From the sequence record PX880103.1: a DNA stretch of 64,000 bases. One strand, written 5' to 3'. Of the stretch, positions 1 to 6,249 are shown in pieces. The notes beneath the pieces were generated by a model. That model worked only from the letters and a program-made list of their open reading frames with translations, was not told the origin of the DNA and searched no databases. The position numbers and the translations under genes are program-made. The DNA is from a phage. Position 1 is the stretch's first letter, and every line of letters begins with the position of its first letter.

Positions 1-390
1 CATTGTATTCAAAACGATATTGGTGGGAGACTAAGAATTAATAATGGTGGAGCTATTGCAGGCGGCGGTGGCGGCGGTGGCGGCGGTAACAGGGGTAGAC
101 TATCATTTGGTGGTGGCGGTGGTCGCCCATTCGGTGCTGGCGGGTCTTCCTCTCATATGAGTTCCGGTGCAACTGCTGGCACCATTTCCGCTCCGGGTAA
201 AGGATCTGTTGGTGAGGGGTCTCTTAGTGCATATACAGGCGGTGCTGGCGGTAACGTTGGTGCTGCTGGAGGAAGATGTAATACTCAAGGTACCGGTACA
301 GAATATAACGGAGGAGCTGCTGGTTATGCCGTCATAGGGTCCGCTCCAACGTGGATAAATGTTGGAGCAATATATGGTCCAAGAGTATAA
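1..390 (+). CDS. 38: Distal tail-fibre adhesin gp38, C-terminal part (5' end outside window)
   Basis: Frame is open from nt 1 to the stop at 388-390. Translation has poly-Gly blocks (GGGGGGGGG, GGGGG, GGAGGN, GGAAG) separated by short variable segments, as in T2-type gp38 adhesins; lies directly upstream of holin t. Confidence 0.7.
   Translation, partial: HCIQNDIGGRLRINNGGAIAGGGGGGGGGNRGRLSFGGGGGRPFGAGGSSSHMSSGATAGTISAPGKGSVGEGSLSAYTGGAGGNVGAAGGRCNTQGTGTEYNGGAAGYAVIGSAPTWINVGAIYGPRV
61..87 (+). repeat. (GGC GGC GGT)x3 glycine-codon tract inside gene 38; a shorter tract follows at about 109-123
   Basis: Direct reading: ggcggcggtggcggcggtggcggcggt. Confidence 0.8.
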
Positions 391-394
391 TTTG

Positions 395-402
395 AATAAA
401 TA
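395..402 (+). promoter_or_regulatory. Late-promoter-like box AATAAATA upstream of t
   Basis: 7/8 match to T4 late consensus TATAAATA, about 19 nt before the ATG; AAAGGAGGG Shine-Dalgarno follows. Confidence 0.3.
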
Positions 403-420
403 TCCTTAAAAGGAGGGTCT

Positions 421-4085: not shown

Positions 4086-5410
4086 TTGATTTCCTCTAAA
4101 TCTTTGGTGTATTCAGTAACTACATCAGTAGTTTTCCAATATTCGTTTTCTTCTTTTTTAGCTTTAGCTTCTTCAGCAAGTTTCTTTGCTTCATCGGAAG
4201 TCATATGAAAAATATTCATTCCAACTAGTTTATCAACATAAGAAGAATACATATCGATTTTCGAAAGTTCTTCGGTCAGTTCTTTACGAGTTTTACCCTG
4301 TACAACAATTTCACCTGAAATTACTTTCTTAATGAAATGTGCCTTGGCAAAGGCTAAACGAAAAGCTGACTCAGTTTCTTTAATTTTGTTATCAATTCGT
4401 TTTTGGACATAAGTTTTACGAACTTCAACAAAGTCTTTAATTAAATCAACTACGTTATCGTAAACTTGTAGTTTTCCTTTCTCATTAATAACCGTAATAT
4501 TCTGAGAACGACGCTCAATCAACCCGAAGTCTTTCATAATTTTTGCATGGCGTTCTTCTTCGTTATCGCTCAAAGAGTATTCTTTGCGGAATTTAACTTT
4601 GAAGCCAAAACCATGCTCACCACAAGCATCATCCCATGTAATGAAGCCTTTATCTTCAAGTGGGTCTAAGATTTTACTCACATAAGTTTCACGATCATAC
4701 TTGTACGGAATCTCAGTGATATGCATTTGAGTTCGTGAAGTAAACTTATATGTTCCACGAATTTCATATTGCCCATCAATTTCAACGACTTCACCGCGAA
4801 ATTCTGGGAATTCTACCTTCGGTTTAGTTACTTTCTTTCCTTGAAGAGCTTGCAGTACAGCTTTCTTGACAGAAGAAACACTATGAGGAAGAATGTAAGT
4901 TGCATAACCAGTTGCAATACCGGAAACGCCATTAAGAAGAACAGTAGGAATAATAGGCAAATAGAAAGCAGGCGGAATGTGTTCTTTATCTTGATGTACC
5001 GGAGCATATTCAGTATCTTTATATACGTTATAGAAATTTTTACTTACACGAGCAAAAATATAACGACTTGCTGCTGCTTTTTGAACGGTACGAGAACCAA
5101 AGTTTCCTTGACCATCTAACAGAGGAAAGTTATTATTCCAGGTGTTAGCCATCAAAGCGCCCGCATCTTGTGCAGAGTTTTCGCCATGGTGATATCCAAG
5201 GTCCGCTACACCACCTGCGATAGAAGCGAGTTTGTGAAACTTATCTTTATTTCCTCGCGCCAAATCAAGAGCTCGAGCAATAACAAATCGTTGAACTGGC
5301 TTAAATCCATCAATCATATTTGGAATAGCACGATTTTCAACCGTGTACATAGCATAAGCCAATGCTTCATTATCAATGATACTTTTTAAATCGCGATTAT
5401 TCAGTTGCAT
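4082..5410 (-). CDS. 52: DNA topoisomerase II medium subunit gp52
   Basis: 442 aa as in T4 gp52; GyrA-like breakage-reunion sequence; ATG confirmed. Confidence 0.95.
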   Translation of the reverse strand: MQLNNRDLKSIIDNEALAYAMYTVENRAIPNMIDGFKPVQRFVIARALDLARGNKDKFHKLASIAGGVADLGYHHGENSAQDAGALMANTWNNNFPLLDGQGNFGSRTVQKAAASRYIFARVSKNFYNVYKDTEYAPVHQDKEHIPPAFYLPIIPTVLLNGVSGIATGYATYILPHSVSSVKKAVLQALQGKKVTKPKVEFPEFRGEVVEIDGQYEIRGTYKFTSRTQMHITEIPYKYDRETYVSKILDPLEDKGFITWDDACGEHGFGFKVKFRKEYSLSDNEEERHAKIMKDFGLIERRSQNITVINEKGKLQVYDNVVDLIKDFVEVRKTYVQKRIDNKIKETESAFRLAFAKAHFIKKVISGEIVVQGKTRKELTEELSKIDMYSSYVDKLVGMNIFHMTSDEAKKLAEEAKAKKEENEYWKTTDVVTEYTKDLEEIK

Positions 5411-5414
5411 AAAT

Positions 5415-5555
5415 TTACCATACTAGTGAATGTAGTGCCATAATAACATCAGAAATGAAAAGCACGACTTGAATTAATCCGAACATTACTCCATAATATA
5501 GTGCTACCAATAAAGTAGCAAGGGCTAATGAATAGCCCAAGATTTTCTTAATCAT
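5415..5555 (-). CDS. Small membrane peptide (46 aa, 52.1 position)
   Basis: Below track cutoff; MIKKILGYSLALATLLVALYYGVMFGLIQVVLFISDVIMALHSLVW; start overlaps upstream stop. Confidence 0.4.
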   Translation of the reverse strand: MIKKILGYSLALATLLVALYYGVMFGLIQVVLFISDVIMALHSLVW

Positions 5556-5706
5556 TAGTGGATAACAACACAAATGTTAAATATGCACACATACCCTGGG
5601 CTAAAGCTTGTGAAAACACACTGCTAGCATCGATACAGATAGTTAAAACACATGCTACTATCCAACAAATAAATGAAATAACTCCTAATAATTTTGCGAT
5701 ATTCAT
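5548..5706 (-). CDS. Small membrane protein (52 aa, ac-like by position)
   Basis: Below track cutoff; GAGGAAA SD; two hydrophobic segments; T4 ac (about 51 aa) sits between stp and 52.1. Confidence 0.45.
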   Translation of the reverse strand: MNIAKLLGVISFICWIVACVLTICIDASSVFSQALAQGMCAYLTFVLLSTND

Positions 5707-5713
5707 ATTTTCC

Positions 5714-5794
5714 TCACTGACGTCCGAATACGCCTTTGGTTTTAAGATTGTTACGATAGAACTGCATCACATGTTCGTTATGGAAATTACTCAT
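5714..5794 (-). CDS. stp: Stp peptide (26 aa; activator of host PrrC anticodon nuclease in T4)
   Basis: Translation [26 protein letters not shown]; ATG overlaps ndd stop (TAATG); matches the T4 order ndd-stp-ac. Confidence 0.6.
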
Positions 5795-6249
5795 TAATAT
5801 GCCTGTAAAACAAATTTAAAGTTATCAGCCAACATACGATTCATTTCTTCAAGTGTTTGATACTCAGAATGATGATTACGAGTAAACGCCAAAGCTAACT
5901 GACCTTTTCCAAATCCCGTCGTTAGAGGTTTCATCTTAGAAGCAGGCAAATAAAACACTGTGTATGGAACATTGTTATTTGCAATAGTACGCGCAAGTTG
6001 AGACCGGCGTTGACGAATATGACTTAAAACCGCACTGAATCCTTGCTTAGAACGCTGATTACCTACATAAAATCGTGCAGATACGCATGGATTACTAAAT
6101 GGACCACCGAGTTTACTCACTAAAAAGTAAAATCCAGGTTTAGACAAAATGTCTTTGTGCGGAGTTCCCAAAAACCACTCACCACCCTTGATTGTACCAA
6201 TAACAGTAGCGCCTGCATTATTCAGATCAATAACAGTCATATATTTCAT
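5794..6249 (-). CDS. ndd: Nucleoid disruption protein Ndd
   Basis: 151 aa from ATG at 6249 (track start at 6297 is GTG inside the upstream region); GAGGAAA SD. Confidence 0.85.

Follow-up and report, generated by a model that had tools for sequence, protein, structure and literature searches.

The T2-type gp38 adhesins, their polyglycine-II structure, their GRM/HVS architecture and a model for their recombination have reportedly been set out by Riede, Montag and Henning (1987), Tetart (1998), Trojet (2011), Dunne (2018) and Lutz (2025), and the structure of S16 gp38 (PDB 6F45) is said to be that of Dunne et al. 2018. In most T-even phages gp38 is the main host-range determinant and its subtype predicts the receptor; such prediction helps in the selection or engineering of phages for therapy. 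The S16 and PP01 proteins serve as the structural model, with an N-terminal three-helix attachment domain, a beta-helix and a polyglycine-II sandwich. In the S16 crystal structure the Gly motifs are polyglycine type II helices arranged as a three-layer sandwich, the variable segments are distal loops proposed as receptor-binding, and the three-helix domain at the N terminus, which bears three tryptophans, inserts into the trimer of gp37; the receptor-binding site or sites of S16 gp38 are called 'yet unknown' (PMC6851490). PP01 gp38 (PDB 9v85) binds OmpC (PMC12892980). T4 gp38 is absent from the virion and acts in fibre assembly (PMC6851490), and the T2/T6-type adhesin arrangement is the commoner one (PMC3157838, PMC6851490).

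The window analyzed here is a stretch of 64,000 nucleotides of phage DNA (PX880103.1), and its backbone, that of a Tequatrovirus, shares about 96% identity with several coliphages. Frame 1 of the + strand is open from base 1 to a TAA stop at nt 388–390 and encodes 129 amino acids (HCIQNDIGGRLRINNGGAIAGGGGGGGGGNRGRLSFGGGGGRPFGAGGSSSHMSSGATAGTISAPGKGSVGEGSLSAYTGGAGGNVGAAGGRCNTQGTGTEYNGGAAGYAVIGSAPTWINVGAIYGPRV). Alignment to 259-residue relatives places nt 1 at the first base of codon 131, with the orf continuing past the window start; nt 1–390 (+ strand) thus correspond to codons ~131–259 of a gene of ~259 aa plus the TAA, and the three-tryptophan attachment domain, GRM1 and gene 37 would be found in the sequence preceding the window. 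The best match over this length is the BF15 'long-tail fiber adhesin' (92.6% nucleotide identity), a PF05268 protein. Residues 1–129 of the fragment match positions 88–218 of the 218-position Pfam profile PF05268 (GP38, Phage tail fibre adhesin) with E=3e-31 and 109 bits (cut-off 25), and sequence matches are found to the structures of PP01 gp38 (9v85_A; E=5e-20, query 2–129) and S16 gp38 (6f45_D; E=1e-18, query 2–126), with the Gly motifs all in register in both alignments. Together with the 38-t-asiA synteny described below and the 88–93% nucleotide identity to annotated adhesins, these matches bear out the initial annotation of a T2-type, receptor-recognising gp38; by sequence, nt 1–390 are the 3′ part of gene 38 of a Tequatrovirus, encoding a T2/S16-type adhesin. 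More fully, we put at about 93% the probability that the fragment is the C-terminal specificity domain of a Tequatrovirus gp38 adhesin, that it is a type 2 OmpA-binding allele (the receptor being predicted from its relatives), and that it is a natural recombinant. It is a new, recombinant allele of a thoroughly characterised adhesin family and introduces no new principle.

Glycine accounts for 43 of the 129 residues, which is why the fragment has a G+C content of 52% compared with 34.5% for the whole window. Two further orfs, at nt 103–288 (− strand) and 167–337 (+ strand), were considered as genes and taken instead as by-products of this G+C-rich stretch of Gly codons, because the family match is in the gp38 frame.

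Downstream, the setting of the gene is that of T4. A spacer at nt 391–420 (+) contains an AAGGAGG ribosome-binding site as well as AATAAATA, which agrees with the late-promoter box of T4 (TATAAATA) at 7/8 positions; this spacer is followed by gene t (nt 421–1077, +), whose 218-residue holin product matches Pfam Phage_holin_T (E=1.5e-118) and is identical in amino acid sequence to the T4 holin; asiA, motA and gene 52 follow on the other strand. The holin protein of the window is indexed in 230 blocks of a public collection, and none of the loci found through the identical holin carries this gene 38 allele. With blastn, homology to T4 sets in again 6 nt beyond the stop of gene 38, with 99.1% identity over nt 396–1400, and since T4 identity restarts at nt 396, the right edge of the swapped 37–38 cassette is the late-promoter box of gene t. 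T4 gp38 shares with the window gene its name, its position upstream of holin t, its flank (99.1% identity) and probably the whole slot between gene 37 and holin t, but it is an unrelated protein of 183 aa. That T4 gp38 is a chaperone, as stated at first reading, accords with the lack of a GP38-adhesin Pfam match and with the assembly role reported for it; because T4 gp38 lacks that match, the window phage carries a T2/T6-type adhesin cassette on a T4-like backbone. A scan of nt 1–1500 for sigma-70 promoters and terminators gave promoter counts at chance level and nothing relevant to gene 38. ARAGORN found no tRNA genes in the 64-kb window, Rfam no family at gathering score, and this part of the T4-like genome showed no group I intron.

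The domain was divided according to the five-GRM/four-HVS scheme (PMC3157838, PMC12032242), with segment boundaries drawn in the present analysis. The Gly blocks noted at first reading (G9, G5, GGAGGN and GGAAG) are all found in the translation, with variable segments between them, and GRM2–GRM5 and the C-terminal tail WINVGAIYGPRV are present in order and aligned with 11 other gp38 proteins. Nucleotides 1–42 (+) encode the end of HVS1 and the central beta-helix strand HCIQNDIGGRLRIN, running into the polyglycine sandwich by homology to S16 gp38; all 14 residues are shared with BF15, FL18, FL12, kvi and RB14, compared with 8/14 for Bas45 and 6/14 for T2, so that by sequence this segment is of the BF15/FL18/PP01 type and not of the T2/Bas45 type. 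GRM2 (NGGAIAGGGGGGGGG, NGGAIAG9; nt 43–87, +), whose G9 run is reported by TRF, aligns to S16 GGGGGGGG, which is helix 3 of that structure (PMC6851490), and to the G8 run of PP01. The variable segment NRGRLSF (nt 88–108, +), which is HVS2 in the numbering of Trojet and Lutz, lies between GRM2 and GRM3 and is identical in 7/7 positions to NBG2, 6/7 to BF15, 5/7 to FL18 and 1/12 to T2 and PP01. GRM3 (GGGGGRPFGAGG, G5RPFGAGG; nt 109–144, +) contains the G5 run at nt 109–123 and holds the 5′ mosaic breakpoint described below. The long variable loop region HVS3 (SSSHMSSGATAGTISAPGKGSVGEGSLSAYT; nt 145–237, +; fragment residues 49–79) matches FL18 and Bas45 at 31/31 residues and BF15 at 28/31, and PP01 and T2 at only 6–8 of 31–33. 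GRM4 (GGAGGNVGAAGG; nt 238–273, +) is identical to FL18, Bas45, kvi and FL20 (12/12) and shares 9/12 residues with BF15. HVS4 (RCNTQGTGTEYN; nt 274–309, +) shares 11/12 residues with FL18 and Bas45 and includes an E-Y pair that corresponds by sequence context to E230 and Y231 of RB49, the sites of the host-range mutations E230K and Y231S (PMC9569957). GRM5 (GGAAG; nt 310–324, +) adjoins the 3′ mosaic breakpoint, which lies between nt 293 and 315, and the conserved C-terminal tail YAVIGSAPTWINVGAIYGPRV (nt 325–387, +), which leads back into the beta-helix, matches BF15 at 21/21 residues and FL18 and Bas45 at 14/21.

A polyglycine-II sandwich fold would be expected for the window gp38 from its alignment with S16 and PP01 gp38. 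Since the Gly motifs are polyglycine-II helices, the Gly blocks would form the structural core of the domain and not linkers: G9, G5-RPFGAGG, GGAGGNVGAAGG and GGAAG would fold into such helices, with one more motif upstream of the window, and pack as a three-layer 'sandwich' from which the intervening variable segments would project as distal loops touching the host outer-membrane receptor. Each long tail fibre would end in a single gp38 monomer capping its gp37 trimer. AlphaFold2 was run on the fragment, which is without GRM1 and the beta-helix, and gave a pLDDT of 39.0 alone and 39.6 with an eight-row alignment, too low for a usable model; these low values are probably due to the absent GRM1 and beta-helix, the rare fold and the shallow alignment.

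Several phages carry a gene 38 matching at the nucleotide level over the full length: after BF15 come G2133, vB_Eco-B1.1, FL18 (90.5%), FL12 (90.0%) and Ac3 (89.8%); Bas45 (PaulHMueller) is 89.5% identical, and kvi and FL20 are 92.7% and 91.8% identical, both over nt 1–354. Amino acid identity of the fragment is 87–93% to the closest relatives (BF15, FL18, FL12, kvi, FL20 and Bas45), with 91% each for FL12, FL18 and FL20, as against 49–54% to T2 and PP01. BF15 gp38 (MW822007.1; 93% amino acid identity) has the same perfect (GGCGGCGGT)x3 array, the same first 90 nt and the same C-terminal tail, but it diverges at nt ~126–292, where the window follows FL18 and Bas45. FL12, FL18, FL20 and Bas45 share with the window the order of the Gly motifs, the G9 and G5 runs, 87–91% amino acid identity and a gene 38 locus upstream of holin t. 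The window departs from these four in its C-terminal 21 residues and its 5′ part, which follow BF15/Ac3, and by one or two substitutions in the short variable segments; relative to FL18 and Bas45 together, the window differs at 2/7 positions of the GRM2–GRM3 segment, 1/12 of HVS4 and 7/21 of the C-terminal tail. Homology to the S16 and PP01 proteins extends over the entire fragment and every glycine-rich motif aligns, but PP01 is identical at only 1/12, 6/31 and 3/12 positions of three variable segments and has a Gly run of 8, not 9. A protein homologue search with the fragment returned 12 matches, none identical and several truncated or internally deleted, using a word index that performs poorly on poly-Gly.

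Gene 38 segments with 90–97% nucleotide identity occur in three genera: kvi and FL20 are Krischvirus, FL18 is a Mosigvirus and the window is from a Tequatrovirus. In the Krischvirus genes of kvi and FL20 the identity stops at nt 354, ahead of the end of the C-terminal tail. The adhesin module is exchanged across genera.

The fragment was aligned with nine relatives and is a significant mosaic, with exchange points in or next to GRM3 and GRM5. Nucleotides 1–111 are near-identical to BF15, FL12 and FL18 (over nt 1–60 there are 0–2 mismatches to BF15, FL18, FL12, Ac3, NBG2, kvi and RB14). At the 52 sites informative between BF15 and FL18, nt 126–292 run FL18-like and nt 293–379 are wholly BF15-like; nt 315–390 follow BF15 and Ac3, with no informative site favouring FL18. 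Mismatches in successive 30-nt bins across nt 151–300 number 1, 2, 0, 1 and 1 to FL18/Bas45, and 3, 4, 0, 9 and 3 to BF15. Separate searches agree, the middle piece (nt 124–300) matching FL18 best (96.6%), then JSE and Bas45 (95.5%) and RB49 (94–95%), and the 3′ piece (nt 296–420) matching BF15 and G2133 (96.8%). A two-breakpoint maximum chi-square of 34.3 was obtained for BF15 and FL18, and of 52.3 with Bas45 as the second parent; none of 2000 permutations reached the value in either case.

The 5′ breakpoint falls at nt 111/114–126, inside GRM3 at the G5 tract, and the 3′ breakpoint at nt 293–315, at the HVS4/GRM5 junction. The former is less clean than the latter, with BF15-type sites at nt 180, 183, 195 and 246 within the FL18-like block, and the real donors would therefore be relatives of BF15, FL18 and Bas45 and not those phages exactly. 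The middle from GRM3 through HVS4 comes from an FL18/Bas45-like gene and the 5′ part and C-terminal tail from a BF15/Ac3-like gene, with the exchange points in or adjoining conserved Gly-motif DNA. This is the position expected from the published model of exchange in or near conserved Gly motifs (Tetart 1996/1998, cited in PMC3157838), and the locus clearly illustrates, in a natural phage, how recombination takes place at glycine-motif DNA. Among the 14 laboratory chimeras of Trojet et al., none has exchange points inside the GRM1–GRM5 block (PMC3157838).

The receptor can be predicted from the relatives. FL12 (Tequatrovirus), FL18 (Mosigvirus) and FL20 (Krischvirus) have type 2, OmpA-dependent Gp38 (Lutz et al. 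2025, PMC12032242), the ompA dependence of Bas45 has been complemented (Maffei et al. 2021, PMC8594841), and RB49 is ompA-dependent on K-12 (PMC9569957). The specificity domain of the window clusters with FL12, FL18 and FL20, the type 2 OmpA-binding subgroup, and at the positions of the type-2 contact residues R172, A189 and A253 (PMC12032242) the window has R, A and A when the 259-aa numbering is applied. Aligned with gp38 proteins of known receptor, the variable segments are near those of FL18 and Bas45 (OmpA) and far from those of PP01 (OmpC); no receptor data were found for BF15. Because its closest relatives FL12, FL18, FL20 and Bas45 are experimentally OmpA-dependent, OmpA is most likely the receptor of this gp38, and as a member of the subgroup that also includes RB49-like adhesins, it would most likely direct adsorption of the phage through OmpA.

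Exchange at the Gly tracts was proposed at first reading to swap the variable segments and so to change receptor specificity. The swapping is upheld by the breakpoints, whereas a change of receptor is not indicated here: all of the parts of the mosaic derive from OmpA-type adhesins, and no receptor switch is implied. We regard as rather unlikely the further idea that this natural chimera within GRM1–GRM5, joining FL18-type loops to a BF15-type tail, has an OmpA-variant range or a secondary receptor new to both parents, which if true would provide a ready-made natural example of loop re-assortment altering host range. Use of a receptor other than OmpA, such as Tsx or O antigen, through the new combination of segments appears improbable to us. 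No phage in the collection joins an FL18-type middle to a BF15-type tail, the best full-length match being only 92.6%; gp38 can acquire another receptor or a wider choice of receptors through small loop changes, as seen in PST versus T6 (PMC3157838), one exchanged residue in these loops can be enough to shift specificity (PMC3157838; RB49 E230K, PMC9569957), and RB49-like gp38 uses O antigens as well (PMC9569957). However, every segment of the window gene comes from the same type-2 OmpA subgroup, its longest loop has the same sequence as in FL18 and Bas45, both OmpA-dependent, and gp38 phylogeny was a reliable predictor of the receptor in one study (PMC12032242).

The Gly-codon tracts themselves were examined for length and sequence variation. 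The G9 run occupies codons 21–29 (nt 61–87) as a perfect (GGCGGCGGT)x3 array, which TRF reports with a period of 9, 3.0 copies, 100% match and the consensus GGCGGCGGT. The G5 run occupies codons 37–41 (nt 109–123; GGTGGTGGCGGTGGT) and is a run of GGY codons but not of the same 9-mer, departing from the GGCGGCGGT register at 2/15 bases; the description of both as near-perfect (GGCGGCGGT)n tracts in the initial annotation thus holds exactly for nt 61–87 and is slightly generous for nt 109–123. GGAGGN falls at codons 80–85 and GGAAG at codons 104–108. The pattern GGYGGYGGYGGYGGY, a run of five GGY codons, occurs in the 64-kb window only at nt 61–87 and 109–123, and in none of 100 shuffles.

All 12 alleles with a G9 run have exactly 9 Gly, with up to five synonymous third positions differing, and the 9-mer array is perfect in the window and BF15 alone. 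Across 27 alleles, a range that spans more distant subtypes, the GRM2 run varies from 5 to 9 Gly; the GRM3 run is of length 5 in 26 of the 27, and one allele lacks such a run. Because Gly length is fixed while third positions vary, selection works at the level of the protein, to which the perfect DNA repeat is incidental: that repeat is a by-product of coding for Gly blocks, and other G9 alleles do so with different synonymous codons. Recombination at the Gly tracts, the one half of the proposed mechanism, is thus upheld by the breakpoints in or next to GRM3 and GRM5, whereas slippage, the other half, finds weak support, because tract length is invariant in the subgroup. Slippage is possible, and a role for it as a regular source of variation is putative.

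That the GGC/GGT tracts act as a DNA-level mutator, or contingency locus, with (GGCGGCGGT)n slippage often altering the Gly-run length, or duplicating and deleting what lies between the tracts, as the main route to new specificity, we consider quite improbable. The perfect 27-nt tandem array at nt 61–87, the difference in GRM2 run length between subtypes (5 to 9 Gly), a tandem duplication in a Yersinia phage and several database proteins without the stretch between the two Gly tracts would all be in keeping with such a locus. But 12 of 12 G9 alleles keep 9 Gly despite synonymous changes, the GRM3 run is always 5 where present, Trojet et al. recovered no viable GRM or HVS deletions in T6 (PMC3157838), and the deletion variants, most of which stem from read assemblies, may reflect assembly collapse.

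The duplication is found in Yersinia phage vB_YepM_ZN18 (MN716856.1, positions 1662–1778 of locus L033), where a perfect 51-nt tandem repeat of 2.3 copies (100% match) starts where the G9 tract ends and reaches the G5 tract, repeats YYSPFSQMRLTFGGGGG, and is contained in a gp38 of 277 aa. Relatives of the ZN18 gene at 97.6% identity are without the 51-nt duplication, which looks like the product of a natural unequal exchange between two Gly-codon tracts and shows that events of this kind happen. Six other gp38 proteins (P0004, P0005, P0006, P0010, P0011 and P0012), mostly from read-assembly sources, are without the stretch between the two Gly tracts, P0005 reading AIA----GGGGRPFG; such losses could be genuine deletions from one GRM to another, or the assembler may have collapsed the GGY repeats.

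The weakest alternative, that the 129 codons are left over from a gene 38 that is defective or cut short (a pseudogene, or a protein with a chaperone role only), is very improbable: the C-terminal half alone is visible in the window and broken copies exist in databases (GCA_021469345.1 has a split gene of 70 aa and 190 aa), but the 129 codons are open, all of the conserved Gly motifs and the WxNVGxIYGxRV tail are intact, the Gly-tract differences from relatives are all synonymous, as expected under purifying selection, and all of the examined relatives that share nt 1–60 almost exactly have an intact gene of 257–260 aa, with Gp38_N plus GP38 in BF15, FL18, kvi and NBG2. An intact gene of this size is also present in the more divergent FL20. 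The check for Gp38_N (PF21721) covered BF15, FL18, kvi, Bas45 and NBG2; the domain was found in the first four by Pfam scan and in NBG2 among precomputed Pfam hits. Gene 37 of NBG2 has a C-terminal intramolecular-chaperone (Peptidase_S74) domain. W9, W22 and W37 are invariant in an eight-sequence alignment of the relatives, and an N-terminal gp37-attachment domain is accordingly inferred for the window gp38. In GCA_021469345.1 (positions 5163–5969 of the locus), gene 38 is called as a 70-aa Gp38_N protein and a 190-aa GP38 protein, which suggests a frameshift or a sequencing error.
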